This document shows, piece by piece, positions 19,248-36,842 of a DNA stretch of 36,842 nt. The notes under the pieces are model-generated. The model was not told the DNA's origin. It worked only from the letters and a program-made list of their open reading frames with translations, and did not search any database. Position 1 is the first letter of the stretch; the number at the start of each line of letters is the position of its first letter. The position numbers were made by a program, and so were the translations under genes. The stretch comes from Candidatus Heimdallarchaeota archaeon (GTDB lineage: Archaea; Asgardarchaeota; Heimdallarchaeia; Heimdallarchaeales; Heimdallarchaeaceae), in the NCBI GenBank assembly GCA_021399345.1, contig JAAFKI010000005.1:1-36842 (forward strand), written 5' to 3'.

Positions 19248-20975
19248 CTATGAATAGAGAAAGGTTTCCATTACTAGCTTCTCGTGAATTTCTTCATACA
19301 TTGCAATAATTGTTTCTTTAGCTATCTCTTTAGCGAATTTACGTTTTGTTCTTTCCTCAGGTTTTCTCTTTCTCCAGATATTGGAAACGAGCTGATAGAA
19401 CAGTTTAGCAAAATAGTAGAGACTTAGTGGTAGAGCTAATATAACTTTGAAGAAGAATAGTAGTACTTTCCAAAGCATTCCAAGAGATTCTTTAGCTTCG
19501 GCTTTTGTTGCTTCGTCTAATTCCTCGTGAGGTTCATCAGCAAGCAGTAATGAGTTTAATCCTTTTTGGACTTCAATAAATTTAGAACCAAGATAGACAG
19601 CAGATCTCTTTGTCCAGTTCTGAGAGAACATCATCTTGAATTGATTTCCAATGTGTTTCCCATAATGGTAGAAAATCAGAAAGAATTCAACAAATGGCAT
19701 GAAGAAACCAATCACCATATTTCTAGACTTCTTTAGAGCTCGTTTGAAAAAATTCTCTTTGGAAAGGTGGTCAAGAAAATATCTTTGGCCACCTAAAGCT
19801 ATGGAAAATGCTAATTGATTATATTCTAAATCACTAAAGGGGAGATTGTATTTTTCTTCAACTTTCATTATTCCTTTCAATGCACCAATAAGAAGAATAG
19901 AACTGAAAAACTCTTTTGAAACAAATTGCTCATCTAACTTTTTTCTAACGAAACTGAAGGTTTGCTTAGCTTCCCGGTATTTCATGGAATTTTTATCTGC
20001 AAAACTAGCTAAACCAGGTTCTTTTCTCCAAGCTAGAAAATAAGTTTCTTTCTGCCAAAGAAGTAGAGCGAATACTCTAGAAATAGAATCCTCAATTTTA
20101 TTCATATCAAGTCTATCTTCAGTCTCTGAAGAGAGAAATTCCTCATAAAGATTCTTAGTTTTCTCATGTAAAGAAAAAGAAGAAACACTAACAATGTTAG
20201 TAAATCTATCTCGTAAAGTAGTTAAATCACCTACAAGATCAAGTTTGAATTCCTCATAAGTAGAAGCATCAACAGGAGGAGCTTCAAAAAAGGAAAAACT
20301 GGCTTTAGAAGCAAGATAAGGGAGAGAAAATAAATTCTCCAATCTCTGATAGAATGAACCCCAGCTGTATGCACCCATTTGAACTAATCTTAAACTGGAA
20401 CGATGAAAAATAGCATAGATGGGACCAAAGATTGTTGCTACAAAAGAAAGCATGCCCATAACGGTTGAACAAACTACACCAATTAGAGTAATAACTACCC
20501 AGAGAGCTTTATCACCAAGTGAACTCAACCACTCGCTTCTGCTGATAATCCCATCAATAAGGGCATCAAAACTAATGGTTTGGCTACCAATCAAAACAAC
20601 GGAAGCTGCAACTATTAAAACAATAATTAAGAGATGATCATAAGTTTCTCCAACACCTCTTTGAATAGGATAAGCTTTGTTAATCCTATCTTCTTTCATA
20701 ACAACTTCATCAATATCTTCCTCCAATTTAACTAATTCCATTTTTTCAGGATGAGAGAAGAGGTTAGAAATATAAATTAAATACCTCCTCCAGAGGTTGA
20801 GTATAGGGACTAATTCTCGGAGACCTCGAGGAATGAGAAGCTCGTAAATAAAATACATTACCTTAACAAGAACCACAACTAAATAGAGAAGAAGGCCAAG
20901 TACCCAAAGAAAAGGAGTAAGGAATGCTGTGAGAAAATTGCTAAGGAATTGTTTCATATATAATAGAGCATACAT
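19248..20975 (-). CDS. Uncharacterised multi-pass membrane protein, paralog A
   Basis: 575 aa with several hydrophobic segments; colinear homology to the ORF starting at 35422 supports it being a real gene. Confidence 0.85.
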   Translation of the reverse strand: MYALLYMKQFLSNFLTAFLTPFLWVLGLLLYLVVVLVKVMYFIYELLIPRGLRELVPILNLWRRYLIYISNLFSHPEKMELVKLEEDIDEVVMKEDRINKAYPIQRGVGETYDHLLIIVLIVAASVVLIGSQTISFDALIDGIISRSEWLSSLGDKALWVVITLIGVVCSTVMGMLSFVATIFGPIYAIFHRSSLRLVQMGAYSWGSFYQRLENLFSLPYLASKASFSFFEAPPVDASTYEEFKLDLVGDLTTLRDRFTNIVSVSSFSLHEKTKNLYEEFLSSETEDRLDMNKIEDSISRVFALLLWQKETYFLAWRKEPGLASFADKNSMKYREAKQTFSFVRKKLDEQFVSKEFFSSILLIGALKGIMKVEEKYNLPFSDLEYNQLAFSIALGGQRYFLDHLSKENFFKRALKKSRNMVIGFFMPFVEFFLIFYHYGKHIGNQFKMMFSQNWTKRSAVYLGSKFIEVQKGLNSLLLADEPHEELDEATKAEAKESLGMLWKVLLFFFKVILALPLSLYYFAKLFYQLVSNIWRKRKPEERTKRKFAKEIAKETIIAMYEEIHEKLVMETFLYS

Positions 20976-21022
20976 GAACTATATTTTTAATTTTGTGATA
21001 CTAAAAATTGAAGAAAGGAGGA

Positions 21023-22030
21023 CTAGTATTTAATTCTCGGATCAATAAAAACATAAGTGATATCCGTAAGAAGTCGTGCAACTAAGAACAAAAATGGAAA
21101 GATAGTGTTCGTAGCCATCATCATGGGGTAGTCCCTAAAAAGCGCTCCTTCAAGGAAATATGTACCTAATCCTGGCCATCCAAACACTGTCTCTATCATT
21201 ACTGATCCTGCTAGTAATCCTGGTAGTGAGTTACCTACAATTGTCACTATTGGTAGCAATCCATTTCTGAATGCGTGCTTGTATATTACTCCTCTGTTTG
21301 TTACCCCTTTCGCTTTTGCTGTTGTTATATAATCTTGTCTTAATATTTCCAGCAATTGTGATCTGATCAATCTTGCCATAAAAACTAGATGCCCCAGAGT
21401 CAATGCTAGTGTTGGTAATATCAGATATTTGTAGAAGCTTAGGTTAAGCAAAATTGGTTTCACAAACGCATCCTTATTTGTTACTCCTGTAAAATTAAAT
21501 AATTTGAAAGATAAGAACATCAATAGTTTAGCTAGCCAGAACAGCGGCATCGAGTATCCCAATAACATTGCTACCGTTAATGATCTATCCCAGAAACTGT
21601 TTCTTCTTGTTGCTGAAACTACCCCTATTGCTGTAGATAATAATAATGATAATACAAATGAAATTACGTTTAGTATTACTGTATATGATGCGTGGTCCGC
21701 TATTATATTTGCTATAGGTATCCCTATCCCTGCTTGCGTATTGTACCAAGACCTTCCAAAGTCAAACCTTAGTAAATCACTAATGTAATCCACGTATCTT
21801 GTGAACCACGGAATTGTGTATAAATCGCTACTCATCAATCCCATTTCTATTGCTTCTCGATTGTATGCATTATTGTAACAGTCTGGATTATCACAATGAA
21901 TCAAACCCAGTCTAACTATGACTGGATCTCCTGGGCTGACGTTTATTAGAGTGAAATTCATCAACGTAATTCCGAGCATAACTGGAATAATATATAACAC
22001 TCTTCTAATTACGAATCCTTTTAACGACAC
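21023..22030 (-). CDS. dppB: Peptide/nickel ABC transporter permease (DppB/OppB family)
   Basis: IRR start, PGDP, DFGRS, DYITTAKAKG, HAFRNGL, IETVFGWPGLG, RDYP, DPRI end. GTG at 22030 is the likely start. Confidence 0.93.
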   Translation of the reverse strand: MSLKGFVIRRVLYIIPVMLGITLMNFTLINVSPGDPVIVRLGLIHCDNPDCYNNAYNREAIEMGLMSSDLYTIPWFTRYVDYISDLLRFDFGRSWYNTQAGIGIPIANIIADHASYTVILNVISFVLSLLLSTAIGVVSATRRNSFWDRSLTVAMLLGYSMPLFWLAKLLMFLSFKLFNFTGVTNKDAFVKPILLNLSFYKYLILPTLALTLGHLVFMARLIRSQLLEILRQDYITTAKAKGVTNRGVIYKHAFRNGLLPIVTIVGNSLPGLLAGSVMIETVFGWPGLGTYFLEGALFRDYPMMMATNTIFPFLFLVARLLTDITYVFIDPRIKY

Positions 22031-22126
22031 TCCATCACACAACCAAATTCTTTTTCGAATTCTTGTTCTTTTTGTTTCTTTCTATTAATTATGATAAATC
22101 TTTCTAAATGTCACGATGTAATTTAC

Positions 22127-22142
22127 ATGAATAATTATTCAT
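22127..22142. promoter_or_regulatory. Perfect 16-bp palindrome, candidate operator of the DUF134 operon
   Basis: ATGAATAATTATTCAT lies just upstream of TTATATA (22153-22159), which is 23 nt before the DUF134 ATG. Confidence 0.6.
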
Positions 22143-22182
22143 ACCTATAGCCTTATATAGTTAATTAGATAAACTCCTAATC

Positions 22183-22479
22183 ATGGTTCAGAATCGCAAA
22201 ATAGAGCGACGTTGCATTAGTTATGAAGGACACGTCTTTAAGCCTCTAGCCGTACCCATGAAAGATTTAGATCAGATTACTTTAACCAAAGAGGAAATCA
22301 CTGCTCTTTATTATGCTGATTTTCTTTCGTTTAAACAGAATTCTGCTGCTGAAAAGATGGGTATCTCCCAAGCTTCTTTCAGCCGAGATTTGGCTACAGC
22401 TCATTCTAAAATTGCTGATGCTTTTTTCAATACAAAAGCTATTTTGTTTGAAGAGCCTGAAGAAAAGGAAGATGAATAA
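22183..22479 (+). CDS. DUF134 (UPF0251) HTH protein
   Basis: R..RCI, FKP..P, LTKEEI.AL..AD, Q..AAEKMGISQASF.R.L..A..KIADA. Confidence 0.9.
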   Translation: MVQNRKIERRCISYEGHVFKPLAVPMKDLDQITLTKEEITALYYADFLSFKQNSAAEKMGISQASFSRDLATAHSKIADAFFNTKAILFEEPEEKEDE

Positions 22480-22810
22480 TTTGAAAATAGCAATACCAGT
22501 ATCATCAAAAGATGACAATTCGATAATGTTTGAAAGATTTGGACGAGCTAGCTACTTCTGCATTTTTGATACAGAAGATGATTCATCTGTTGTGGTTGCT
22601 AACCCAGCAGTTGGAGCACGAGGTGGAGCAGGTCCTAGAGCTGTTGAGTTTCTAAGTAGTAAGCAAATTCAATCTGTGATAGTCCCTCAATTGGGACCCA
22701 ATGCAGACGGTGCACTTCGAGCAGCGCAAATAACAATTTTTCAGGGAGAATCACTTCCTGTAAAAGATTTGATAGCTAAATGGAAAAATGAGGAATTAAA
22801 TAAATTATAG
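22472..22810 (+). CDS. NifB/NifX-family iron-molybdenum cluster-binding protein
   Basis: KIAIP, RFGRASYF, NP..GGAG, LGPNA..AL..A.I. The true start is the ATG at 22472, not 22313. Confidence 0.9.
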   Translation: MNNLKIAIPVSSKDDNSIMFERFGRASYFCIFDTEDDSSVVVANPAVGARGGAGPRAVEFLSSKQIQSVIVPQLGPNADGALRAAQITIFQGESLPVKDLIAKWKNEELNKL

Positions 22811-22821
22811 GTGATAAAAAA

Positions 22822-23169
22822 ATGAAATATGCAGTACCTTTAGACAACAAGGATGAATGGGATTCTATTGTAGGACAACATTTTGGACATGTTCCATATT
22901 TTGCTATATGGGATGATGAAACAGATACTCTTGATATCATTGAAAACAGAAGTGATCACAAGGGTGGCGTTGGGTTACCAATGGAATTTTTAGCTGATAA
23001 ATGTGACGTTGTATTTTTGAAAGCAGCTGGAGGCAGAGCAGTTACTCTTGGAGCTCAGCTTGGATTACAAGTGTATATGGGTGCAAATGGGTCTCTCAAG
23101 GATACCATTAGTTTCTTTAAGGAAGGCAAATTGCACAAAGCTACACAAGACGATGGATGTAAACACTAA
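22822..23169 (+). CDS. NifB/NifX-family protein, second copy
   Basis: KYAVP, HFGHVPYF, NRSDH.GG, terminal CKH. Confidence 0.88.
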   Translation: MKYAVPLDNKDEWDSIVGQHFGHVPYFAIWDDETDTLDIIENRSDHKGGVGLPMEFLADKCDVVFLKAAGGRAVTLGAQLGLQVYMGANGSLKDTISFFKEGKLHKATQDDGCKH

Positions 23170-23186
23170 ACTGAAGGAAACAACCA

Positions 23187-24023
23187 ATGCAAATAACAAT
23201 AGTTTCCGGCAAAGGAGGAACAGGAAAAACCTCTCTTGCTGTTAGTTTAGCGATGACATTAGAGAACGTTCAGCTTCTTGATGCAGATGTTGATGAACCT
23301 AATTGTTCTCTATTTCTAGACTTAGATACTAAACTAGTAGCAGAAGCGAAGATTCCTATTCCTGAGATTAATTACGATTTGTGCACTTTATGCGGTACTT
23401 GTAGTTCAAATTGTGAATATAATGCACTTATGAAAGTTCCAGATCAGATTCTTGTTTTTGAAAAAATGTGCCATGGTTGCGGATTATGTAGCAAAATATG
23501 TCCTGAAAATGCTATCACTGAAGTACCCAGAACCATAGGTTATCTCTATGAAGGTGAAAATAAAGAATTTCTCTTTAATTACGGAGCATTAATAGTAGGT
23601 GAAGAATTATCGACACCTGTAATTTCTCAGTTAAAACAATTGATCTCTAAAGATAAACCTATCATCGTGATTGATTCACCCCCTGGATCTTCTTGTCCAA
23701 TGGTTGAAACGGTCATTGATTCAGATTATGTCATTTTAGTTAGCGAACCAACACCATTTGGACTTTCTGATATGAAAATGGTTGTAAAAACATTAAGAAT
23801 TCTGGAAAAGAAGTTTGGAGTAGTTATTAACAAAGATGGTGTTGGAAATGAAGAATTAGAATTATACTGTCAAAAGGAAAATATACCTGTTCTTCTCAAA
23901 ATCCCTTTCGATCGAGAAATAGCTAAGAACTATTCCGAAGGAATTCCTTTCTTAAATGTTCTACCTGATATGGATTCAAAACTTAAACACATGATTGTTG
24001 ATATTAGGGAGGCTTTACAATGA
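23187..24023 (+). CDS. MinD/CbiA-superfamily P-loop ATPase with inserted ferredoxin domain (COG1149)
   Basis: SGKGGTGKT, DADVDEPN, two CxxCxxCxxxC clusters, DSPPGSSCP, EPTPFGL. Confidence 0.93.
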   Translation: MQITIVSGKGGTGKTSLAVSLAMTLENVQLLDADVDEPNCSLFLDLDTKLVAEAKIPIPEINYDLCTLCGTCSSNCEYNALMKVPDQILVFEKMCHGCGLCSKICPENAITEVPRTIGYLYEGENKEFLFNYGALIVGEELSTPVISQLKQLISKDKPIIVIDSPPGSSCPMVETVIDSDYVILVSEPTPFGLSDMKMVVKTLRILEKKFGVVINKDGVGNEELELYCQKENIPVLLKIPFDREIAKNYSEGIPFLNVLPDMDSKLKHMIVDIREALQ

Positions 24024-24919
24024 AAGAAGAGAAAATCAGACAATTAACTGTTATTTCTGGAAAGGGAGGAACAGGGAAAAGTTCAATTATTGCTGCTTTA
24101 GCTAGCAATCTTCAAGAGAAAATCATTCTCGCAGATGCAGATGTAGACGCAGCAGACCTATATCTAATATTTGAGCCAGAAAAGACTGTTTCTTTTGATT
24201 TTGAAGGATTGAAGAAAGCTATAATTGATTTAGACCTGTGTACAGAATGTGGGATTTGTTTAGAAACTTGCAGATTTGATTCAATATCTGAAGATTTCAT
24301 AGTAAATCCAACCAAATGTGAAGGATGTGCAGCATGTTCTCATATGTGCCCAGTTTCAGCAATAGAAATGTTAGACAACATATCTGGTCAATACTATATT
24401 TCTGACACTCGAATTGGAAAAATGATTCACGCAAGACTCTATCCTGGAGAGGAAAGCTCCGGTTTATTAGTAGCTGAAGTAAGAAAAGTTGCAAAACAAA
24501 CAGCTGAGGAACAAGGACGCAAACTAGTCTTAATTGATGGTTCGCCAGGAATAGGTTGTCCAGTAGTCAGTTCGTTAGTTGGAGCTGATTTAGCACTAGT
24601 TGTTACAGAACCTACATTATCAGGTTATCATGATCTAAAAAGGATATTAGAACTGTTGAAAATATTCAAGATTCCAGGATATATCATAATTAACAGATCT
24701 GATATAAATGAGGAAATTTCCCTGAAAATTGAAAAAGAATTTCAAGAAACATTTCCAATAATAGAGAAGATACCCTATAATCCCATTTTTGTTAAAGCTA
24801 TGATTGAAAAGAAATCAGTACTCGAAGTTGATTCAGATGATAAAGAAGTTCAAAAAATTAAGAATATGTTAATTGAACTTAGCAATTTTGTTTTAGAAAA
24901 AACTCAATTGGACAATTAG
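24020..24919 (+). CDS. COG1149 P-loop ATPase with ferredoxin insert, second copy
   Basis: SGKGGTGKS, DADVDAADL, CTECGICLETC, CEGCAACSHMCP, DGSPGIGCP, EPTLSG; ATGA overlap with the previous gene. Confidence 0.93.
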   Translation: MKEEKIRQLTVISGKGGTGKSSIIAALASNLQEKIILADADVDAADLYLIFEPEKTVSFDFEGLKKAIIDLDLCTECGICLETCRFDSISEDFIVNPTKCEGCAACSHMCPVSAIEMLDNISGQYYISDTRIGKMIHARLYPGEESSGLLVAEVRKVAKQTAEEQGRKLVLIDGSPGIGCPVVSSLVGADLALVVTEPTLSGYHDLKRILELLKIFKIPGYIIINRSDINEEISLKIEKEFQETFPIIEKIPYNPIFVKAMIEKKSVLEVDSDDKEVQKIKNMLIELSNFVLEKTQLDN

Positions 24920-24950
24920 ATTTAAAGAGTACTTTCTTCTTACTTTTTTT

Positions 24951-25787
24951 ATGGAGCATAAACAAGATTATTTTGTAGGTGGGAAGAATCACAAAATATT
25001 CTATCAATCCTGGATTCCTAGCAATCCAAAAGCAATTATTCAAATAATTCATGGTTTTGCTGAGCATTCCGAACGATACAAATATCTAATTGATAAATTA
25101 ACCGCAGCTAATTTTATTGTTTACATTAACGATCATAGAGGTCATGGAAGAAGCGAAGGTAGAAGAAACCATATTAGAAGCTTAACAGAATTTGCAGAAG
25201 ATTGCTATAAACTTACAAAGATTTTTAGAAAAGCACACCCTAACCTAGATTTGTTTCTTCTAGGCCATTCTATGGGGTCTTCAGTAGCTCAAAGATATGC
25301 TATTCAACATCAGGCTGAAATTAAAGGTTTAATTTTGTCTGGGACAGGTTCAAAGGTTCAAGAAACACCGATAATCATGGTTAAGTTAGCATCGATCATG
25401 TCCAAAATTTTCCCAACCTTTTCAGGTCCTACAGGAATAGACCCTAACAACCTTTCATCAGATTCTGAATCTGTTGAAAATTATAGGAATGACCCATTAA
25501 TAAATTACAAAAAATCAACAGCTGCTATGGGAATGAGTATGTTTAAACACTATTCAGAGGTAAAGGATAAAATTCCTAGTATAAAGATTCCTGTACTTTT
25601 TCAGAGTGGAGAAGAGGATATAATGATGTTAGATGTTGAAGAAATTTTTGAAGATTTAACAATTAAAGATAAAACTATGAGAATCTATCCTAACTGTAAA
25701 CATGAAATGTATACAGAATCTCCACAAAGCAAGGATTTGGCTGTAAAAGATTTAATTTCTTGGATTCTTACACATCTTCAGGACTAG
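24951..25787 (+). CDS. Alpha/beta hydrolase, lysophospholipase/monoglyceride lipase-like
   Basis: IHGFAEH, DHRGHGRS, GHSMG nucleophile elbow, C-terminal HE. Confidence 0.93.
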   Translation: MEHKQDYFVGGKNHKIFYQSWIPSNPKAIIQIIHGFAEHSERYKYLIDKLTAANFIVYINDHRGHGRSEGRRNHIRSLTEFAEDCYKLTKIFRKAHPNLDLFLLGHSMGSSVAQRYAIQHQAEIKGLILSGTGSKVQETPIIMVKLASIMSKIFPTFSGPTGIDPNNLSSDSESVENYRNDPLINYKKSTAAMGMSMFKHYSEVKDKIPSIKIPVLFQSGEEDIMMLDVEEIFEDLTIKDKTMRIYPNCKHEMYTESPQSKDLAVKDLISWILTHLQD

Positions 25788-26940
25788 AATATTCTTTGAT
25801 TAGTAAAGCATCACCTAAATGAATCTTTGCTTCATCTTTGGGAAAGAAGAAATATTGCCCTTTCTTTCTTAAAGCTAATATCTGAAAGAAATCATCCGTT
25901 AATTCTGCTTCTCGTACAGTCATTCCAATATAGGGCGAATCTCTCGCTACGTGAATGTAATCTAAAGCTTCAGACGAATCATCTACTACATCTTCTAGAA
26001 GAGAATAAGGTTTATGTCTTATTGTAACTCCAAAAGCTATTTTTGTTGCTGCATCAGCTATTTCCTCAAAAGAATCCGCCATCCTTAGATAAGCCATGAG
26101 TGTTTTCTCATTCATTAAATCTTGTTTAAACAAGCGTAAAACTTCTTCAATGAGCTCGAATTGTAGTTTGTCTACTTTATCTTCAGTTGTTATGATTAAA
26201 TTCTTCACTTCAGGTAAATCTTCTAATGCATAAAGATAAGCTAAATCCACAATTAACTCAGCTGATTCTTTCATTGTGACTAATAAGTCTTGATGATACT
26301 GCAATTCATCTTTTGGATGGTCTAAATCTTCAGAAATAATCTTTTCTCTCGCTTCTTCGACTGATTTGATTCTTCCATTTACTAATTCTATGAATTGATT
26401 AACGTTTTCTAAAGGACCTCTGAAAATAAGCAGATCCCCAGCCATCATCACTTCATCATAGTGAAGCAAGAGTTCATTTTCAGAGCGTATAATACCTATT
26501 ACATCAATTCCGATGAGATCATGTAAATCAGCTGCAACCTCTGATTTTCCACATAAACAGGACTTTTCATCTAAACGGATTAAGTCAACGATTTGATCCA
26601 TGTGTTGTTGAATATGTTTAAGCTCATTTGCAATATCATAATCCAATAGAACTAATGAAGCCATATCAGCTGCTGAATCAGATATTAGGTTGTTGGCCTC
26701 ACCGATTATATAATAAATCCTCAGCTGCTCTGCTTGATTGAGGCTTTTTATTGATACTGATAGTCTATCTAATAGATTTTTGTACAAACCATCTATTTTT
26801 TCTTCTAAAATTAAAACTTGTTCAGCTACCAATTTATCAGAATAAAGTAAAGATGCAAATGATAAATCTACACAAATTTCTGAAAGCGTCTTTATCTCAA
26901 TTAATATTTCTTTAACACTAATAGGTTCATTATCGCTCAT
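25768..26940 (-). CDS. PhoU/TrkA_C-domain protein with internal duplication
   Basis: Two PhoU-like repeats (EIKTLSEICVDLSF and TMKESAELIVDLAY; ISDSAADMA and IADAATKIA), each followed by a TrkA_C domain (DVIGIIR..GDLLIFRG; QILALRK..GDALLI). Confidence 0.85.
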   Translation of the reverse strand: MSDNEPISVKEILIEIKTLSEICVDLSFASLLYSDKLVAEQVLILEEKIDGLYKNLLDRLSVSIKSLNQAEQLRIYYIIGEANNLISDSAADMASLVLLDYDIANELKHIQQHMDQIVDLIRLDEKSCLCGKSEVAADLHDLIGIDVIGIIRSENELLLHYDEVMMAGDLLIFRGPLENVNQFIELVNGRIKSVEEAREKIISEDLDHPKDELQYHQDLLVTMKESAELIVDLAYLYALEDLPEVKNLIITTEDKVDKLQFELIEEVLRLFKQDLMNEKTLMAYLRMADSFEEIADAATKIAFGVTIRHKPYSLLEDVVDDSSEALDYIHVARDSPYIGMTVREAELTDDFFQILALRKKGQYFFFPKDEAKIHLGDALLIKEYSSPEDV

Positions 26941-27039
26941 TGCTGATCGAACACTCTTTCATAGGATTATAATTTAATAATAATATCAACTTTTCGCTTC
27001 TGTTTAGTCTGGAAGGAATGTAAAAAACCTTATTAAACT

Positions 27040-28410
27040 GTGAAAATCTTAAATTCTGTGAATACTGAAATTACCAAGAAGAAATCCTTTTTTATGGAAA
27101 GGAACGAGATTCTTATTCTTACAGGACTTTTCTTTCTTGGTATGTCTACAGCAATGTTTTCACCATATGCGCCAATTTGGCTAACTCAAATTTTTGATGT
27201 GGATCGGTATTCTATTCTTGGCTTTGTAGCCATAATTCCTTATTTTGTGATAGCTATTGGAACCACAGTATGGGGGATAATGAGTGATAAATTTGGAAAC
27301 AAAAGATTTGTTTTTATGGGATTTATTGCAGCAGGTTTGATGTATTTCACATTGATGTTCATAAATAATCCATATGCCTTTCTAGCTGTGATGCTAGTGG
27401 GTTACATATTCATTTCAGGACAAACATCAAATATCTATTCTTATGCCACTCTAACATCTTCTAAGAAGAAGGAAGTAATCTTGGGGGAAATAGCTGCAAC
27501 CTTTAGCTTAGCTTGGCTGGTCGCTAGTCCTATTGCCGCACTAATTCACGATAATGCAGCTACTTTCAGCTTAAATTGGTATTCTTCTTCATCTGTTAGT
27601 TCAATTATTAGTTTGAATGCTCAAACACCTACAAATGGTATTCTAAACTTCGCTACAATGCTTTCAAAATTCTTCTCGGATGAATTAGCAAATAACCCAG
27701 CTCAAGGAGTACAATTATTCATAGCAGTAATAAGTTGTGTAATTGCTTCAATTTTCATACTTTTCACAAAAGAAGAAAGAAGAGAGAAAAAACAAGCGAA
27801 AGAACAAGAATCAAAGAAGATGGGAAAACTAACTGAGTTTAAACTAATTTTTGTTATTCTACTGTTAATTGCTTTCTTTCAAAATGCTACATCAGGAGGT
27901 TTCTGGGCATATTCTTCCCTTTATTTCATAGATTTTCTAAGAGCTCCTGCAGTTTATTTCAGCTATTTTCTAATAGGTACGACCACGATTGGAGTTGTTT
28001 TATCGTTACTATTGGGGAGATTAACAAAAATACGAAGAATTACTTCAACTGTTATGGCTTTCATATTTCTACAAATACTCATCTATTTACTAATGACATT
28101 ATTCCCTCTAAATATTACTCTAGGTCTGATAGTCTATAGCTTCCCAACATATGTGATCTCAACTATTTGTCTAACTAGTCTAGTTGGAACTTTCTCAAAT
28201 AAAATTAGAAGAGCAACAGCATTTGGTCTATTCAACACAATTGGAATTGCTGGTTCAATCTCAGCAACCCTACTAATGGGATTTGTAGCTGATATATCGC
28301 CTAAAGGATTAGTAAGCTTGTTAGGCTTTGCTTTAGGATTCGCGATTTGTACTTTTGTTTTATCAATAATCCTTTCGATTATTATTGAAAGAAGAAAGCA
28401 TTTAATCTGA
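27040..28410 (+). CDS. MFS transporter
   Basis: About 12 hydrophobic helices, motif A WGIMSDKFGNKR, RATAFGLFN. The start may be the ATG at 27094. Confidence 0.92.
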   Translation: MKILNSVNTEITKKKSFFMERNEILILTGLFFLGMSTAMFSPYAPIWLTQIFDVDRYSILGFVAIIPYFVIAIGTTVWGIMSDKFGNKRFVFMGFIAAGLMYFTLMFINNPYAFLAVMLVGYIFISGQTSNIYSYATLTSSKKKEVILGEIAATFSLAWLVASPIAALIHDNAATFSLNWYSSSSVSSIISLNAQTPTNGILNFATMLSKFFSDELANNPAQGVQLFIAVISCVIASIFILFTKEERREKKQAKEQESKKMGKLTEFKLIFVILLLIAFFQNATSGGFWAYSSLYFIDFLRAPAVYFSYFLIGTTTIGVVLSLLLGRLTKIRRITSTVMAFIFLQILIYLLMTLFPLNITLGLIVYSFPTYVISTICLTSLVGTFSNKIRRATAFGLFNTIGIAGSISATLLMGFVADISPKGLVSLLGFALGFAICTFVLSIILSIIIERRKHLI

Positions 28411-28435
28411 AAAACTTAAGAATATGAAAACTGAG

Positions 28436-28473
28436 TGGTCAATAGTGACCAGCATCTTAAATATCTGTGACCA
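28436..28473. promoter_or_regulatory. Inverted-repeat operator and TATA box upstream of a three-gene wHTH module
   Basis: TGGTCA-N4-TGACCA at 28436-28451, TTAAATA at 28457-28463, and a further TGACCA half-site at 28468-28473. Confidence 0.6.
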
Positions 28474-28508
28474 ATCAATATAAGCATACAAAACTTAAGG
28501 TGAAATGA

Positions 28509-28859: not shown

Positions 28860-28869
28860 GAGAAAATAG

Positions 28870-29139
28870 TTGGTGTTGACATTGACAGATAAATTATATT
28901 CAATTGTAGTGTCTATCAATTATATTTCTTATTTAATCATAGTTCTTCCATTGATGTTATTATACTATTTAATAGCAAATCCAATGAAAAGAAGCAGGAA
29001 TAAAAGAGTACTAAAAAAAGAGCTTAAAAAAGGTGGTATTCCAAAACTGTTAAGAAAAGAAATAGCTGAATCCTACAAGGATTTTACTAAACTTCTCAGT
29101 TTTAGCAGTATTTTGAAGATGATAAAAGAAGTAGGTTAA
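28870..29139 (+). CDS. Small basic membrane-anchored hypothetical protein
   Basis: One N-terminal hydrophobic helix then LKKGGIPKLLRKEI; operonic position. Confidence 0.7.
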   Translation: MVLTLTDKLYSIVVSINYISYLIIVLPLMLLYYLIANPMKRSRNKRVLKKELKKGGIPKLLRKEIAESYKDFTKLLSFSSILKMIKEVG

Positions 29140-29164
29140 GATTCAAGTAAGAAAGGTTTCGTCT

Positions 29165-29632
29165 ATGTCTGAAAATAAAGTAGCTTTAGAAGGTAGAATA
29201 TCAGAACTTGAAGAAAAAATCAATTATGTAATTCTTCAAATATCTAATCTACAGCATAAAGTTTCAGACAGTAACCCAGAACTAAAACAGATGATGAACT
29301 TATTACAAATTCTCACCTCCACTTTACAAATATCAAAAGCTCCGTTAACTGTAGCTTCACAGACTTTAACTCTAAAAGATACTATTTTGCAGAGATTTCC
29401 TAATCTAAAATATGATTCAATCTCAAAAGCTATAATTGTAGCTTTAGATCGAAAGAAAAGACTCAATATATCACAACTAACTGAGCAAGTGAGAAAAGAG
29501 AGAGGATCGGCATCTAGAAGGATTGTTCGTGAAAGAGTAGACAAACTAATTGAATCTGGAATAATAGCTGAAGTTGATTCTGGATATGGACGACAACTAG
29601 AGCTTGTTAAAATCGAAAAAGACGAAGAGTGA
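29165..29632 (+). CDS. Coiled-coil plus winged-helix transcriptional regulator
   Basis: N-terminal heptads; C-terminal D.ISKAII.AL..NISQLTEQVR..RGSASRRIVRERVDKLIESGII. Confidence 0.82.
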   Translation: MSENKVALEGRISELEEKINYVILQISNLQHKVSDSNPELKQMMNLLQILTSTLQISKAPLTVASQTLTLKDTILQRFPNLKYDSISKAIIVALDRKKRLNISQLTEQVRKERGSASRRIVRERVDKLIESGIIAEVDSGYGRQLELVKIEKDEE

Positions 29633-30583
29633 TTATTTCCAGACTTCTTTCATAACTCTAAGAAAATTCTGAGATTCTATTTTTTGTATATCTTCTTTAT
29701 CATACCCATTTTTATCCAAATAATCAACTAAAACAGGATAATAACTAACATCCTTCATCACATCTGGTACTGAAGCACCATCAAAATCTGACCCGAAACC
29801 AATGTGGTTGATTCCCACTAATTCTACAATATGATCAATATGATTTTTTAAATCTTCCAATTGAATTTGATCTTTCTTCTTATCGCCAGAAAGAAAAGAT
29901 ACACAGAAATTAAGCCCTATTGTTCCATTAGTTTCAGCAATAGCTCTTATCTGCTCATCCTTCAAATTTCTTGGATGATTACAAATAGAATAAGCATTGC
30001 TATGTGAAGCAATTATTGGTTTGCTAGTCTGGTCAATTACATCCCAAAAAGATTTCTCATTCAAATGGCTGACATCAGCAATTATACCCAAATTATTTAG
30101 TTCTTTGACTAGTTCTTTACCAATTTCAGTCAATCCTCTATCTTGTTCAAAACTTTCTCCTGATAACATGTTAAACGTAACACCTGTAGCAAATCTATTC
30201 ACGTTGGACCAGCTTAAACCAATACTTCTCAAGCCCATTCTGTAATAATTCTTCAAAGTCAGGAATTCACTATCTATGCCACCAGAACCCTCAAAATGTA
30301 AAACAGCTCCAATTTTATCATTCACTTTACATTTAGTTATATCCTCTGCAGACTTTACTTGTAAGAGATTATTTTCTTGGTCTTCGATTAATGAAAACCA
30401 CTGGTCAACACCTTTATAGATTTCAAAATCACTCATAGCCGGAAATACTGCAAAGAAAGCTGCTAGAACGTTTCCTTTTCTTAATCTTGGAAGATCAACA
30501 TGTCCAGTTTCAGATTTTTCAGAAAATTTTCTTCTTTCTCTAGTCAGAGCCCATAGTACGTCAGTATGTCCATCAATTATCAT
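29633..30583 (-). CDS. Membrane dipeptidase (peptidase M19)
   Basis: IIDGHTD, HVDLPRL, FEG, DVSH, ASHSN, HPRNL, GSDFDG. Confidence 0.95.
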   Translation of the reverse strand: MIIDGHTDVLWALTRERRKFSEKSETGHVDLPRLRKGNVLAAFFAVFPAMSDFEIYKGVDQWFSLIEDQENNLLQVKSAEDITKCKVNDKIGAVLHFEGSGGIDSEFLTLKNYYRMGLRSIGLSWSNVNRFATGVTFNMLSGESFEQDRGLTEIGKELVKELNNLGIIADVSHLNEKSFWDVIDQTSKPIIASHSNAYSICNHPRNLKDEQIRAIAETNGTIGLNFCVSFLSGDKKKDQIQLEDLKNHIDHIVELVGINHIGFGSDFDGASVPDVMKDVSYYPVLVDYLDKNGYDKEDIQKIESQNFLRVMKEVWK

Positions 30584-30639
30584 ACTATACTAAAAATTAG
30601 TTCTTCGATTAAAAAATTTTCTCTCTAAACTGATGAAAT

Positions 30640-31467
30640 CTAAATGTATTTTAGTTTCTTTAATACTAGTAAAACTGTTAAAGTTGTAGTAGAATCATAT
30701 TCTTCCCCATCTTCTGATTCCCATTTACCATCGCTGGTTTGTCTATGTAAAAGAACATCTAGTAAACGAATGACAAATTTGTGATTCTCCAATCCAGCAT
30801 TAATGAAACTTTCAACCATCCAAACTAATGAGGAGGAGGGATAGTTCTCTAAATTAAATGTTTGAAGCATTTCTAGTCCTCTTCTTGAGATGCAATCATT
30901 TTCACCCTTTATTGCAATAAATGCTGGAATTGCGTTCCACAATGCGTGGGGATAACTTTTAAAACCTGCATCATCTCTCCAATTTCTTGATAAATAATCT
31001 AGACTTTTAATTATGAAGTTTCGATATGTCTCATCACCTAAACCCAATAGGAAATTAACCACAATAGCAGTACAAAAAATTCTGTTTGGATCAATTCCTG
31101 GAGTTTCCCAAAGTGAGGGTTCAAAATTTTTTATACTTTGAGGTTCTTCGAAGAATCCTTCATCCGATTGATTCATTAGTAGGAAGTTTGCTGCTTTGGA
31201 GAGATAATCTTCAATTTCACTTTTCATATCTAGAATTAGAAAGTCTTTGAAAAAAGTTATAGTAGGACCAATAGTGCTAAGTGAATCTTCTCTCATTCTG
31301 AAAGGCATCCCTCCATCAGAATTTTGTAAATTGAGCTGTTCCTTTACCATCTCTTTTGTTACAGACTTTTCTCCAAGCATCAAGGCTAGTTTAAGTTTTT
31401 CTACCTCATTTCCTTTATTTCTAATAAATTCTATTGCTTTTGACGAATCAATTTGAGGTTCATTCAT
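30640..31467 (-). CDS. Prenyltransferase/squalene-cyclase (QW) repeat protein
   Basis: LQNSDGGM, NQSDEGFF, NWRDDAGF, RQTSDGKW repeats; no DxDD motif seen. Confidence 0.75.
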   Translation of the reverse strand: MNEPQIDSSKAIEFIRNKGNEVEKLKLALMLGEKSVTKEMVKEQLNLQNSDGGMPFRMREDSLSTIGPTITFFKDFLILDMKSEIEDYLSKAANFLLMNQSDEGFFEEPQSIKNFEPSLWETPGIDPNRIFCTAIVVNFLLGLGDETYRNFIIKSLDYLSRNWRDDAGFKSYPHALWNAIPAFIAIKGENDCISRRGLEMLQTFNLENYPSSSLVWMVESFINAGLENHKFVIRLLDVLLHRQTSDGKWESEDGEEYDSTTTLTVLLVLKKLKYI

Positions 31468-31520
31468 CTACTAAATAATTGATATTGTGATACTTAAACC
31501 TACTGTGGAAAAGCTTTTCT

Positions 31521-32246
31521 TCAGATTTTCAGTTTTTTACTCATTTTCTCTGCTGCATCACGTTTAGCTGATTTTCTGTTTGATCCTTTTCCAGAGCTTA
31601 AATATTCCTTATCACCTATTTTTGCTTTGCATTGCATAAAGAAAATAGGATCATGATCATCCCCTTTTTTCCTTAAAAGTGAATATTCAGGAAGTTCTAA
31701 TCCTTCTTTTTGGAAAAATTCCTGAAGTTGATTGATGGGATTATGCTCACAAACTGTTAGTTTAAGTATTTTCTCTCTCCCTTTTTCATCATTTATCTCA
31801 TTTTTAAAATGCTTAAGTCGTTTGAGAAAAAGTTTGTAGAAAAATTCTCTTGTTACATCTACACCTTTAGAGAGATAAAAAGCACCAAAAATAGCTTCTA
31901 GACTATCCTCTAGATCAGTTTCAACTATTTTGTAATTAGAACTAGTTCTTAGTTTCTTTTCAATTCCTAATTCCTTTCCTACTTCAGCTAATGTATTGGT
32001 TCTAACTAAAAGAGATCTTAATTGAGACAAAATACCAACATCTTCTTTGGTTTCTTTATAGAGCCATTCAGCTGTTAGAGTATCTAATATAGAATCTCCT
32101 AGAAACTCCAATCTTTCGAAATTCAAAATTATTTGGCTTGGTGGGTGATAATTTGGATGAGTGAGTGCTTCAATCAACAAAGATTCATCCAATTCCCAAT
32201 CTAGAATTTTGTTTTTCTCTAAATCTATTTTCTTAGCTTTACTCAT
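31521..32246 (-). CDS. rnc: Ribonuclease III (single RNase III domain plus dsRBD)
   Basis: ALTH, ERLEFLGDSIL signature, EDSLEAIFGAFYL, and dsRBD (PINQLQEFFQ..P.Y..G.G.NRKSAKRDAA). Confidence 0.95.
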   Translation of the reverse strand: MSKAKKIDLEKNKILDWELDESLLIEALTHPNYHPPSQIILNFERLEFLGDSILDTLTAEWLYKETKEDVGILSQLRSLLVRTNTLAEVGKELGIEKKLRTSSNYKIVETDLEDSLEAIFGAFYLSKGVDVTREFFYKLFLKRLKHFKNEINDEKGREKILKLTVCEHNPINQLQEFFQKEGLELPEYSLLRKKGDDHDPIFFMQCKAKIGDKEYLSSGKGSNRKSAKRDAAEKMSKKLKI

Positions 32247-32297
32247 TAAGAATTCAATTATAGCAGAGTTTTTAAATTCATTCCTTTGTTTTTAAGT

Positions 32298-32753
32298 ATG
32301 GATTTTTCAAACCCTATCGATGATCTTGATTGGATTTATGGTTTATGGAGAGGAACTCTCTCTGCTGACGGGATAGATTCTGAATCTTACTTACAATGTA
32401 GAAAATTTGGTATAGATATTATAGAAATTAAACAAATAAAATGCTCTGCTAAAACAGAGAAGTTACTTGAAAGGAATTTTCTCTTTTTTGATAAAACTAG
32501 GGAACAGATGAAACTAATCAGTTTTAATTCTGAAGGTTATATTGAAACATCAAATTTAGTTATAAAATCTAACAAAAAACAGACTATTCTAACTAGTGAT
32601 TTCGAATCGGGATATAATCTACCTCCCAACATGAAAATTATTAAGGAATTTACTTACAAAAAGACTGCAAAACAGCTCGAAATTAAAGTTAAAATGGGAT
32701 TAAAGGAAGAAATTGTATCTCATGGGATATTTACTTTTTCAGGTAATAAGTGA
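32298..32753 (+). CDS. Hypothetical beta-barrel protein (calycin/nitrobindin-like)
   Basis: N-terminal LDWIYGLWRG (GxW motif) followed by predicted beta strands; ATG at 32298 preferred as start. Confidence 0.5.
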   Translation: MDFSNPIDDLDWIYGLWRGTLSADGIDSESYLQCRKFGIDIIEIKQIKCSAKTEKLLERNFLFFDKTREQMKLISFNSEGYIETSNLVIKSNKKQTILTSDFESGYNLPPNMKIIKEFTYKKTAKQLEIKVKMGLKEEIVSHGIFTFSGNK

Positions 32754-32786
32754 CAAAAATAACTCAAGAATTGGTTTTTTTCTAAT

Positions 32787-33332
32787 GTGAGTATCATAAC
32801 TATTATTAGTAAAAAACACACTTGTGTAAACAGATTAGTCTTGCCTAGGGATTTCAAAATTTATTATTCTGAAAGAATCGCTGATGAAGTCTCAGAACAC
32901 ATTGAGAGATTCCTTAGCGACATCTATCAAATGCAGTTCAGGTCTGTAGGTGTTAGAATCCCTCGACAAGTAGCTTGGAATACTGAAAAAAACGCTTATG
33001 ATGCCCAATTGCTTCTAAATAACGCTCAATCTGAAGGATTAACCTTTTTTCTTTGGTTGATCGAAAAATCATTGATTGTAAATAATAAGTATGTTTTTGG
33101 ATATGGAGAGACTATAAAGGGAACAATTGTATCAACAGCTAGAATGGCAACAAGAACACTTACAGCAAAAGAAGTAGCATTTCACGTTGGGATAGTTTTA
33201 GGTTTGAAACCATGTAATGAGGAATGCTTAATGAAAGAAACTGAAAGTTTTGAAGTTCTTATACAAAAACCCTCTACTTTATGTAACACATGTGCAGTAA
33301 AGTTTCAAAGAGTTAAAATGCGATATATGTAA
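32787..33332 (+). CDS. Archaemetzincin (peptidase M54)-like protein, catalytic site degenerate
   Basis: AWN..KNAYDA..LL, YVFG, VSTAR, KE, GLKPC..CLM, K...LCNTC match archaemetzincins, but HExxHxxGxxH reads FHVGIVLGLKP. The start may be the TTG at 32841. Confidence 0.8.
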   Translation: MSIITIISKKHTCVNRLVLPRDFKIYYSERIADEVSEHIERFLSDIYQMQFRSVGVRIPRQVAWNTEKNAYDAQLLLNNAQSEGLTFFLWLIEKSLIVNNKYVFGYGETIKGTIVSTARMATRTLTAKEVAFHVGIVLGLKPCNEECLMKETESFEVLIQKPSTLCNTCAVKFQRVKMRYM

Positions 33333-33368
33333 TCAGATTAGATAACTACTCCTAGAAAACTTTTAGAA

Positions 33369-35366
33369 TTGAACAGTCTATTCGTTCACACTAATATGTC
33401 GGATATTCTATTGGGGTCTCTTAATCATCTGGAAGATATACTTTTTCAAATAAACGACTTGATTCTAGAGAACAGGCTCTTTGATGAAGATGAGCTGTTA
33501 TGTAGTTTCAAGGTTTTTGGGGGATTATATCTGGTATCTTGTGCAGAAAAATACAACCTAATAGAGCCTAGTCTATCTTTTAAGAAGAAATTCTCAAAGA
33601 TTTCGAAAGCTTTCCCTTCTTTATATGATATTGAAATATATGACCAATTTTCTCGATTCTACCCTAAGATAATTGAAATAAGAAATGAATTTGGTAATGA
33701 AATTGGTTTGGATCCTTTAGGGAATCTATATCAAAAGATATTAACAAAAACAGCGAAGCAAGGAAAGGGAATAGTTTTTACTCCAATTTCCATAATAAAA
33801 TATATTCTACATCAAGTAGGGTTTCCTAACAAATACTCAATAAGAGATAAACAAAATATTATTGATTTATCGTCTGGATCAGGATTATTTCTAGCGCAAG
33901 CAATTGACTTACTGATTGAGCAAAATATAGAAAAATTCACTGTAAATGAAATAATTGATTATATTCAAAATAATGTCATTGGATTCGATATTGACCCGTT
34001 AGCAGTATATATAGCCAAATTTAATCTATCACTGATATTAATTGAACGATTAAAAGAAAGATATAATTTAGAAACATCCTTCACTCCTAACATCTATTTA
34101 ACAAACTCACTGGCTAAACAAGGAGAGGAAGATGTTTATGAAGTCAAGAAAGCAAAGAATCAACTTTATGATTTTGTAGTTGGAAACCCACCCTATATTG
34201 AAGCAAAACGGATGGATAAACTGACTAAGAAGATTTGTTTACTTAATTACCCTAAAGCTGCTAGAGGTCATTTTGATGTTTATTCTTGCTTTTTAGAACT
34301 TGGTACTGATCTGTTAAAAGCCAATGGAAAACTTGGATACATCATCCCCAGTAAATTTCTTAGTTCAAGGTATTCAAAAGAAATGAGAAGATATTTTCTT
34401 GAACATAATCTTATTTCAGAAATTGTTGATTTAACACATCAGAATGTCTTTCGTCCAGCTGTTTATCCAGTTATACTCATATTAGATAAGAATAGGTTGA
34501 ATGAGGAGACAATTAAACTCGCTAAGAATGTTGATTATGAAGAGTTACAAACAATGAACTTCAAATCAAAGTGTAAATATGTTTCTGCAGATTTTTTCTA
34601 TAAAACTACAAACAAAACCATTTTTCTACCAGATTCAACGTCCCTTTCTATAATAGAGAAGATTTACAATGATTCTGAATATAGGCTAGGAGATTTAGTT
34701 AGATTTAGGTGGTCAATTTCATTCCATCGGAGAGGATTACGAGAACATTTTGTATTTGAGAAACCAGTTAGTACAAAATCTAGGAAATTTCTAGGTGGAA
34801 AACCATTTGGTGGAAATAGAGAAGTTGAACGATATGGTATTAATTGGAAAGGTTACTATTTGGATTATAACCATGAGAAAGCAAAAAAAATAAAAAATAA
34901 CTTTCCTGAAATTGATATATTTACATCAAAGAAGATAATCATATGCCAACATGCTCTAAGGATGAGAGCAACATTGGATGCTGAGGGTTATGTTTGTAAA
35001 GATATTTTCTTACTGGGACACTTGACTCAAAAAGCTAGGGAGTTAAACATTAGTCTTGAATTCATTCTTTCTCTTTTAAACTCCGAGTTGTTCAGCTTTA
35101 TGTATTCTATAATGTATTCAAGTACTGAGATAACTGGAAAATATCTACATTATCTACCAATGTATCTTCACGATCTACCTTTCATTATTCCGGATGATCC
35201 ACTGAATGAGTTACTTATTCAAAAAGTGAATTTATTACTTAAACAGGAGCAATTAAATCACACAATAGATGAGGAAGTAGACAGCTTAATTTATGGTTTG
35301 TTTAAAGTAGATGAAAAAGAAAGAAAATATGCAAAAAAACACATAAGTCAATATCTCGTGAAATAG
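33369..35366 (+). CDS. N6-adenine DNA methyltransferase (Eco57I/TaqI-like, gamma class) with TaqI_C-like domain
   Basis: LGNLYQ, GIVFTP, DLSSGSGLFL, GFDID, VVGNPPY, DVYSCF, GYIIP, LLNS. The start may be the ATG at 33396. Confidence 0.92.
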   Translation: MNSLFVHTNMSDILLGSLNHLEDILFQINDLILENRLFDEDELLCSFKVFGGLYLVSCAEKYNLIEPSLSFKKKFSKISKAFPSLYDIEIYDQFSRFYPKIIEIRNEFGNEIGLDPLGNLYQKILTKTAKQGKGIVFTPISIIKYILHQVGFPNKYSIRDKQNIIDLSSGSGLFLAQAIDLLIEQNIEKFTVNEIIDYIQNNVIGFDIDPLAVYIAKFNLSLILIERLKERYNLETSFTPNIYLTNSLAKQGEEDVYEVKKAKNQLYDFVVGNPPYIEAKRMDKLTKKICLLNYPKAARGHFDVYSCFLELGTDLLKANGKLGYIIPSKFLSSRYSKEMRRYFLEHNLISEIVDLTHQNVFRPAVYPVILILDKNRLNEETIKLAKNVDYEELQTMNFKSKCKYVSADFFYKTTNKTIFLPDSTSLSIIEKIYNDSEYRLGDLVRFRWSISFHRRGLREHFVFEKPVSTKSRKFLGGKPFGGNREVERYGINWKGYYLDYNHEKAKKIKNNFPEIDIFTSKKIIICQHALRMRATLDAEGYVCKDIFLLGHLTQKARELNISLEFILSLLNSELFSFMYSIMYSSTEITGKYLHYLPMYLHDLPFIIPDDPLNELLIQKVNLLLKQEQLNHTIDEEVDSLIYGLFKVDEKERKYAKKHISQYLVK

Positions 35367-35421
35367 CTTGAGCTAGATATTTAACAAAAGAATCATTGAT
35401 TTAATAAGAAAGGGTTTTGAA

Positions 35422-36842
35422 ATGTCAAAAAAAGAAGAACCAGCAATTGAAATTAATGTACGAAAAAAGATTGGTTTTTCTTCACGCTTTAAAGAATTTG
35501 GAACAAAACAAGTTGAAAAAATAAAAGATACTTCCATTTCAGTTCAGAAGAAACTACAAAGAGGGGCTGGAAAATTTTGGATTTGGTTCAAAATCATAAG
35601 TAAGGAATTTTGGATCTTTCTGAATGAATATGTTTTTCACTACTATACTCCCATCGGATTCTTACTCTTGTTTGAATACTACATTTTTATTTGGCCTATT
35701 TTGAAATTTCTTAAAATCTTCTTCTATATAATTTACCCCCCCAGACTAAGAAGATACTCTGTTAAGAGACTGAAAACTTTTTGGCAAACTCTACATATCA
35801 AAGTATTCCCAGTATTGATGAAAATTTCGTTCATCATTCTAGCAGTTTTTTTCACACTAGTTACAGCTCTTGGAAAGCTAAGTTTGATATTATTTGATAT
35901 AATTGTTCCCAGAGGTTTAAGAGAATTAGTCCCACTGCTTCAGATGTACAGAAAATATGCTCTTACAGTTGCTAATTTTCTTTCTGGGAAAAAATTTAAA
36001 GAAATTATAGAAGTTTCGCAGGAATTAGACGAAATAGTTCTTAAAGAACGACAGATGATTAAAGCTTATCCAATCCGGAGAGGTGTTGGAGAGGTCATTA
36101 ATGTTGCGATAGGAACTCCAATAATTATTATTGTTATTCCAGCTGCTATAGGGAGAATTTATGGAATCGAGGGTTTAGATCTTATACAGGTTTTTCAGGA
36201 TTATATTGGAATAAAACCATTCTGGACCATTACTTTGTTTGGAACAGGTTTACTTGTAGTTTCTTGGGTTGCTACAATATTCGGACCTATTTATGCATTA
36301 TTTCACGAATGTAATGTTTATCTAATGAAATGGGGAGCATATCGATGGGCAAACATTTACAGAACCTTAGAAAACTTCTTTTCTTTACCATATCATGCAG
36401 CGAAATCATCCTTCTCATTTTTTGATGCTCCTCCTGTATCTACGGAAACGATGGTAGAATTCAGATTAGAAATAATGGAAGAAGTAGATTCTATGAAAGA
36501 AAAAGTTCAACAACTTCTTTCTCTTGATCCAAGGAATGTTCCAGAAAGGTCGAAAAATAACTTAGAAAAATTACTAAATGAAGCGGAATTATCATTAAAT
36601 GAGTTGGATATCTCAAAAATAACAAAACAAACAGGAAGGACTTTTGCATTGCTTATTTGGTCAAAGGAATCTTCGATTTTTCCATGGTTGAGACAGGAAG
36701 CTAAAGCAAGATTTGCAAAGAAAAATAATATGAGTCGAAAAGAAGTTGAAAAAGCGTTCAAAGTGATTTTTACAAAAATAGAGGAAGGGTATATTAGTTA
36801 CGATCTTTTTTCATCTGTTCTTATTACAGGAGCTCTTAAGGG
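35422..36842 (+). CDS. Uncharacterised multi-pass membrane protein, paralog B (3'-truncated; absent from ORF track)
   Basis: Manual translation gives 473 open codons from ATG 35422 (MSKKEEPAIE...) to the window end, with motifs shared with 19248-20975. Confidence 0.88.
   Translation, partial: MSKKEEPAIEINVRKKIGFSSRFKEFGTKQVEKIKDTSISVQKKLQRGAGKFWIWFKIISKEFWIFLNEYVFHYYTPIGFLLLFEYYIFIWPILKFLKIFFYIIYPPRLRRYSVKRLKTFWQTLHIKVFPVLMKISFIILAVFFTLVTALGKLSLILFDIIVPRGLRELVPLLQMYRKYALTVANFLSGKKFKEIIEVSQELDEIVLKERQMIKAYPIRRGVGEVINVAIGTPIIIIVIPAAIGRIYGIEGLDLIQVFQDYIGIKPFWTITLFGTGLLVVSWVATIFGPIYALFHECNVYLMKWGAYRWANIYRTLENFFSLPYHAAKSSFSFFDAPPVSTETMVEFRLEIMEEVDSMKEKVQQLLSLDPRNVPERSKNNLEKLLNEAELSLNELDISKITKQTGRTFALLIWSKESSIFPWLRQEAKARFAKKNNMSRKEVEKAFKVIFTKIEEGYISYDLFSSVLITGALK

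Follow-up and report, generated by a model that had tools for sequence, protein, structure and literature searches.

What kind of protein is encoded by two related, unannotated genes that share one contig of an Asgard archaeon? The question is raised by positions 1 to 36,842 of contig JAAFKI010000005.1 (Candidatus Heimdallarchaeota archaeon, assembly GCA_021399345.1), a stretch of 36,842 nucleotides (nt) referred to here as the window, which holds one complete and one interrupted gene for similar membrane proteins, A and B. Together with a third paralogue, C, they belong to a family that is real, native to its hosts and strongly constrained, that is neither mobile nor defence-like, and that is confined to the Heimdallarchaeales (GTDB UBA460), an order of the Heimdall-group Asgard archaea. 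The explanation that we favour as a whole, at somewhat less than an even chance, is that A, B and C are paralogues, inherited vertically, in an orphan membrane family of all-helical proteins that would act as an organiser at the inner face of the membrane.

Paralogues A, B and C

The gene copies and the gene that follows them are listed below, with protein lengths in amino acids (aa).
19248..20975, minus strand: paralogue A, complete, 575 aa, from the open reading frame (ORF) and its translation; a member of the A-type clade
35422..36842, plus strand: paralogue B, the first 473 of 681 codons, with the remainder on contig C19 (L003:32-656)
35422..35763, plus strand: residues 1–114 of B, an N-terminal extension absent from A, with a basic start and an extra hydrophobic stretch at 78–106
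Contig C19, L003:716-2446, plus strand: paralogue C, 576 aa, starting 59 nt after B
Contig C19, L003:2545-3621: EamA-type transporter, the next gene after C

In a BLASTP comparison A and B share 38% of their residues, with 64% positives, across an alignment of 346 aa with 14 gap positions (E = 2e-77), a similarity that lies far beyond chance. The full-length identities are 36% between A and B (over 540 aa), 47% between B and C and 33% between A and C. The initial annotation had described A and B as colinear paralogues that share eight pairs of conserved blocks, and it was right on both counts: the E-value speaks for the kinship and every quoted block pair is found, although the last Gly of the ...GALKG block of B falls just beyond the window. 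The roughly 114 additional N-terminal residues that it had attributed to B are also there, as residue 25 of A pairs with residue 139 of B in the alignment. Orthologues of B have 675–681 aa, and members of 651–682 aa from two other families of the order (f2 and f4) likewise align to the family profile only from about residue 85–120. A shares 94% identity with a protein that is annotated as 'hypothetical protein' in a Candidatus Heimdallarchaeaceae archaeon, and the base composition is ordinary, with about 33% G+C across the window.

The frame of B (35422–36840, plus strand) is still open at the end of the window, and a truncation of the gene right after this point had been considered possible. 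The final 31 nt of the window recur exactly as the opening 31 nt of contig C19 of the same assembly (3.27 Mb in 199 contigs, 88.6% complete), placing an assembly break inside B; joining the two contigs gives a full-length frame of 681 aa, which is 92.5% identical over 679 aa to a 681-aa orthologue (P0032). C19 then continues into C. Two paralogues had originally been counted: A and B stand as such, and the number does not, as three copies are present. The natural pair is the tandem B–C and not A–B. A search of the window's own assembly found a C-terminal fragment at the contig start followed by a full copy on each of two contigs, C19 and C148. The latter (L002:1-3371) carries a second version of the arrangement, B'-C'-EamA', with 66% nucleotide identity, and its C copy clusters with C of another species in the tree. 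The C148 region probably comes from a relative that was binned together with this genome; alternatively, it is a second locus or a segmental duplicate of some age.

Neither A nor B has a match in NCBIfam or in Pfam (E ≤ 1), and a Pfam scan of 27 members at E ≤ 10 returned only scattered chance matches. Those to OM14_C, SidC_lipid-bd, Spo0E-like and CARF_TM each involve at most five members, with E-values of 0.0005 or weaker, and none is consistent across the family. The CARF_TM identity offered by PADLOC was rejected for similar figures: it appears in two of 72 members, at E = 5e-4 or weaker and about 18 bits, over membrane segments. PHROGs gave no credible match among the members scanned. A match to the Habc domain of syntaxin-1A among the PDB sequence profiles, at E = 0.8 with the first profile, was gone with a deeper one and is due to chance. 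No fused or longer architectures were found, which is weak evidence, and in a search of 1.84 billion representative proteins the only candidates for split or stand-alone domains were contig-end fragments. We found no description of the family in the literature. The initial annotation could match the proteins to no known family, a judgement now extended to Pfam, NCBIfam, PADLOC, PHROGs and the PDB sequence profiles; neither profile nor structure searches gave an assignment to a characterised family.

True homologues do exist among unannotated proteins, such as UJG41091.1 / UniRef100_A0A9Y1BLK4 of Candidatus Heimdallarchaeum aukensis. They are 31–94% identical over nearly the full length, and the Heimdallarchaeaceae orthologues have the same motifs and gene neighbourhoods as the copies in the window; as they are themselves uncharacterised, they carry no functional information. 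What is new here is that the family has no place in a known sequence family or fold, not a newly demonstrated mechanism. Orphan membrane families are common in Asgard genomes; this one merits at the least a DUF/Pfam entry.

Distribution and descent

We searched 400 genomes of the phylum. The family occurs in 44 of the 46 other genomes of the window's order, which fall into four families (f1–f4), and in none of the 354 genomes outside the order, so that the suggestion of a lineage-specific family made in the initial annotation can be narrowed to a single order. The sister family f5, from the same class, has it in none of 22 genomes. The profile search (HMMER) of the 1.84 billion representative proteins gave only 30 matches, of which 22 reach E < 1e-30; at the weak end stand fragments from contig ends and an artefact caused by a repeat protein (the 1060-aa match P0084), and every named match is a 'hypothetical protein' from Heimdallarchaeaceae or Heimdallarchaeota. 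No copy of the family was found on viral contigs.

In a maximum-likelihood tree the proteins of f2–f4, mostly single-copy, lie apart from those of f1. Within f1 an A clade (support 100) and a B/C clade (94) are sisters; the C clade (100) is found only in the window's genus. The split of A from B/C is at the base of the Heimdallarchaeaceae and that of B from C is within the window's genus, across which the layout of A (minus), about 14.5 kb, B (plus) and C (plus) is repeated; one f4 genome has a recent tandem duplicate of its own. The gene tree follows the genome families, which points to vertical descent, and as f2–f4 are mostly single-copy, any ancestral assembly would have been homomeric.

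Protein anatomy and its bearing on function

The topology was read from hydropathy and from lysine plus arginine (K+R) counts averaged over 72 members. The regions of A are as follows, where TM denotes a transmembrane helix, HS a hydrophobic segment and pLDDT the predicted local distance difference test score of the AlphaFold model.
20835..20912, minus strand: TM1, residues 22–47, from family-mean hydropathy and conservation; AlphaFold helix at 2–47, pLDDT 76–85
20580..20645, minus strand: TM2, residues 111–132, about 20 uncharged residues; K+R 3.2 in the 15 residues before and 0.6 after
20406..20507, minus strand: TM3, residues 157–190, a long hydrophobic segment with a median uncharged run of 35; K+R 0.7 before and 2.9 after
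19725..20405, minus strand: interfacial aromatic helix and helical domain, residues 191–417, on the K/R-rich side; conservation 0.55, as compared with 0.41 in the membrane helices, pLDDT 71–91 for residues 301–480
19662..19724, minus strand: HS4, residues 418–438, a short hydrophobic segment with a median uncharged run of 18; K/R 4.3 and 2.3 on its flanks
19407..19484, minus strand: HS5, residues 498–523, with a mean of 3.9 charged residues inside and a median uncharged run of 13
19269..19361, minus strand: conserved C-terminal helix (F..E.A...L..MY.E.Y.KL), residues 539–569, from the alignment; pLDDT 73–88

TM1–TM3 are confidently predicted membrane helices. The K+R flanks of TM2 and TM3 place the 62-residue loop 1 and everything after TM3 in the cytoplasm, and on this assignment only the short and variable loop 2 is predicted to lie outside the cell. 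HS4 may be a true span or a re-entrant loop, and the approximately 3.9 charges within HS5 mean that it is probably an amphipathic helix lying on the surface and not a membrane span. Hydropathy, charge flanks and the AlphaFold secondary structure are compatible with a three-helix core in which the N-terminus would lie outside, the C-terminus inside and a helical hairpin in the cytosol would separate TM1 from TM2; the N-terminal extension of B does not fit simply into this layout. No internal duplication was detected by hhalign, either between TM1-loop-TM2 and HS4-loop-HS5 or between other pairs of segments.

Several motifs are kept in all four families: P-x-x-[LMV]-x-E-x-x-P directly after TM1 (A 49–57); Y-[PA]-x-[RQ]-[RK]-x-[VI]-G-[EQ] before TM2 (A 102–110); F-G-P-x-[YF], part of a conserved S..A..FGP.Y..F(H) block carried by TM3; G-x-Y-R, L-E-x-x-[FM]-x-x-P, D-x-P-P and R-x-F-A after TM3; and [GA]-A-x-[KR]-G, D-x-[ED]...G...D and the C-terminal [MI]-Y-x-[ED]-[LI]-[YF]. 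The motifs of A 191–417 read G.YR, LE..F..P, F..D.PP, R.FAL, GALKG and D.E...D. Conservation is 0.55–0.56 in the loops versus 0.40–0.51 in the membrane helices, in agreement with the earlier description of conserved blocks that flank the membrane and of TM helices that have diverged. Only 12 columns are strictly invariant in the 72 members, mostly Pro, Gly or Phe; neither G184 nor P185 varies. By type, the invariant positions comprise Pro/Gly helix caps, aromatic residues, Arg/Lys and a few acids, and they are located at the membrane–cytoplasm interface and in the soluble domain.

As the conservation resides in the interfacial motifs on the cytoplasmic side and in the helical domain, with membrane helices that drift and hold no conserved charges, we favour a membrane-anchored organiser at the inner membrane face, less likely a pore; as a statement of function this is possible rather than probable. 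The protein would be anchored by its membrane helices and would work at the inner face, with the interfacial motifs and the helical domain of about 230 residues binding lipid head groups or partner proteins. The duplications, of A versus B/C and then of B versus C, would have specialised this role.

A number of points weigh against an organiser. We infer its mechanism only. Residues R300, E310, K346, K367/G368, D382 and D402 could equally mark a catalytic site, and a groove or pore could be lined by the conserved Ser/Thr residues of TM3 and by the acidic residues found where TM1 and TM2 end on the cytoplasmic side. The topology is based on hydropathy and charge counts, and a simple N-out model is at odds with the basic linker that connects the extra hydrophobic stretch of B to TM1. 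The structural model has low-confidence stretches at 94–116, 262–270 and 480–495, and as the fold searches were made with the model of the whole protein, a single domain with a known fold is possible.

The residues that could be catalytic lead to an enzyme. In this explanation the protein is a membrane-embedded enzyme or flippase for a lipid or lipid-linked substrate (a polyprenyl phosphate or a phospholipid); the Arg/Tyr-rich interfacial motifs would hold the head group, and catalysis would fall to the conserved acids of the helical domain. Residues R53, R63, Y102, R106, Y187, Y203 and Y220, all invariant or nearly so, and the D382-x-E384...D402 group are at the membrane interface or in the cytoplasmic domain, and the gene is a near-universal, single-to-few-copy housekeeping gene of the order. 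However, neither sequence nor fold resembles a known family of lipid enzymes, genes for lipid biosynthesis do not occur as conserved neighbours, and the makeup of the 12 strictly invariant columns is not in its favour. We regard it as unlikely.

The initial annotation had proposed an oligomeric membrane complex, either a channel or a membrane-shaping scaffold and possibly an A/B heteromer. A pore would make the family an oligomeric channel or transporter through TM1–TM3, homomeric in the single-copy lineages and an A/B/C heteromer here. The protein is polytopic and has conserved tandem paralogues, B and C, a pattern that is common in heteromeric membrane complexes; transport proteins adjoin the gene in several lineages (an OppB-type permease, EamA and DsbD_TM); and the Ser/Thr residues and the FGP block of TM3 are conserved. 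Few polar residues are conserved in the membrane helices, however, which argues weakly against a pore, and we consider a channel distinctly unlikely. A complex prediction for full-length A with residues 115–473 of B scored 0.00, the tool returning 'no answer', and counts neither way.

AlphaFold2 with 27 sequences gave a pLDDT of 62 and a predicted template modelling score (pTM) of 0.46; with 72 sequences from all four families the values were 71.4 and 0.64, and the model has 21 helices and no strands. Fold searches with this model (Foldseek and VIA-align) gave, among the matches listed, only one generic helical hairpin. The structural match to ESCRT-III / PspA (IM30; Snf7, CHMP) is of this kind: it spans 65–69 residues in a single hairpin that has a membrane helix as one of its arms, and scores no higher than unrelated hairpins. 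Membership of that group, whose soluble core has five to six helices built on an alpha1-alpha2 hairpin, was rejected, as there is no Snf7 or PspA_IM30 Pfam match and the structural match stops at the one hairpin. Reticulon/REEP-type membrane-shaping proteins have two hydrophobic hairpins of about 30–35 residues, a hydrophilic loop between them and a C-terminal amphipathic helix; in the present family the uncharged run of TM3 has a median of 35 residues and HS5 is amphipathic, TM1 and TM2 have the ordinary length of 20–21 residues, and there is no Pfam match.

The predicted core layout resembles that of the Oxa1/YidC-Get1-EMC3-DUF106 (Ylp1) insertases, with which the family shares its predicted TM1-loop-TM2-TM3 arrangement and a cytoplasmic C-terminal part. 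The family could thus be a very distant and enlarged member or analogue of this superfamily that aids the insertion or assembly of membrane proteins. The predicted core, like that of the insertases, leads from TM1 through about 60 residues of helical loop in the cytosol to TM2 and, past a short loop outside, to a TM3 that ends inside; TM3 and the cytoplasmic ends of TM1 and TM2 hold conserved polar or acidic residues, and the conserved neighbours of the gene are membrane proteins. The family differs in its size of 540–680 aa, with about 385 extra cytoplasmic residues. There is no Pfam match to the YidC, Get1 or EMC3 models (EMC3_TMCO1 PF01956, 60KD_IMP and CHD5/Get1) at E ≤ 10 in 27 members, and when the 72-member profile, or its N-terminal module, was compared by hhalign with 25 DUF106 proteins from the order, the probabilities were <1%. 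A canonical DUF106 gene is already present in 46 of the 47 genomes of the order, and no member of the superfamily is among the fold-search matches listed, which are filled by the single hairpin. An insertase therefore appears highly improbable. As a separate observation, one of the two EMC3_TMCO1/DUF106 matches in each of the f4 genomes G055, G051, G052, G054 and G053 (L039, L043, L049, L064 and L066) falls within an ORF that, at about 480 aa, is over double the 210–240 aa normally seen and may encode an insertase homologue that is fused or extended.

Heimdall-group archaea count among the nearest relatives of eukaryotes known, and the order-wide presence of the family, its absence elsewhere in the phylum, motifs that are constant over four families and the three paralogues put it on a short list of candidates for lineage-specific membrane biology. 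A 2025 preprint reports that the first cultured member of the Heimdallarchaeaceae has protrusions and numerous intracellular vesicles by cryo-electron tomography but no trafficking machinery that could be recognised, and that its genome 'provides few clues' to the machinery (bioRxiv 10.1101/2025.11.06.686947). An organiser could be extended to a part of lineage-specific machinery that organises or reshapes Heimdallarchaeaceae membranes, as in internal vesicles and protrusions. It would act from the cytoplasmic face by means of the long hydrophobic segment, the amphipathic helices and the helical domain, with A, B and C as specialised subunits. We see this as a very slender prospect: the family is one candidate among an unknown number of lineage-specific genes, and may equally prove to be an ordinary housekeeping membrane enzyme.

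Gene neighbourhoods

The genes next to A and B, and one that lies close to A, are as follows.
21023..22042, minus strand: orphan OppB-type ATP-binding cassette (ABC) permease (Pfam BPD_transp_1), 47 nt upstream of A on the same strand
33369..35366, plus strand: Eco57I/TaqI_C-type N6-adenine DNA methyltransferase (Pfam; PADLOC MTase_II), 55 nt upstream of B
15222-16721, minus strand: second Eco57I/TaqI_C-type N6-adenine DNA methyltransferase, 2.5 kb from A

The permease adjoins an A-type gene in at least 23 genomes of four genera, in tandem in g1 and g2 and divergently in g4 and g5. It is 84% identical to the OppB of a complete oppBCDF operon on contig C41 (G000:C41:47342-48346; L067:6343-7350); both OppB copies are kept in genomes throughout family f1, the orphan copy being 74–95% identical between genomes. 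The A-type copies may cooperate with the orphan permease, for instance as a new subunit that supplements a peptide ABC importer or replaces one of its parts: the two genes stay side by side although their relative orientation changes, and the permease is a conserved duplicate of an OppB whose operon is complete elsewhere. However, the adjacency may merely mirror the long-range synteny found throughout f1, and neither the B and C copies nor the single copies of f2–f4 have such a neighbour, so that a permease partnership cannot be the core role of the family. It is quite improbable as an explanation.

Neither methyltransferase in the window has a recognisable restriction nuclease alongside, and both look like orphans within a conserved gene order. 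The order methyltransferase–B–(C)–EamA is kept in f1 as part of a syntenic block of more than 15 kb, and is absent from f2–f4; with C, it recurs on a 58-kb metagenomic contig. In f4 the single copy adjoins a DsbD_TM (CcdA-like) protein at five loci, in varying orientation, and in f3 the copy adjoins a NAD epimerase. No universal operon partner was found; the neighbours vary by lineage, and the methyltransferase link thus looks like conserved gene order only.

The same link had to be weighed as a sign of defence, in which case the family would supply a membrane effector to a defence system or mobile element that involves the adjacent Eco57I-type methyltransferase. The gene just before B encodes a type II/IIG-like methyltransferase that has no nuclease close by, in an order kept in three genera, and the second such enzyme is encoded near A. 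The family is nevertheless near-universal, vertically inherited and syntenic, unlike defence islands; its f2–f4 copies have no adjoining methyltransferase; and there is neither a credible PADLOC or PHROGs match nor a viral copy. A role in defence is hardly credible on these grounds.

Elsewhere in the window, a TnpB/Cas12f-like gene, 5'-truncated at the contig start, occupies 1-633 (plus strand; OrfB_IS605 and a Cas12f1-like TNB domain). A 472-aa ORF at 1280-2698 (minus strand) has no Pfam match and was called longin/DENN-like in the initial annotation. Two tandem gene pairs for TldD/PmbA-type metallopeptidases at 2922-9216 (plus strand) flank a small RING-finger protein at 5743-6258 (minus strand; zf-RING_2 / Prok-RING_1). 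Two genes of bacterial type are present in this archaeon: a NAD-dependent DNA ligase, LigA, with OB, HhH and BRCT domains (12421-14328, minus strand), and an RNase III with a double-stranded RNA-binding domain (31521-32246, minus strand).

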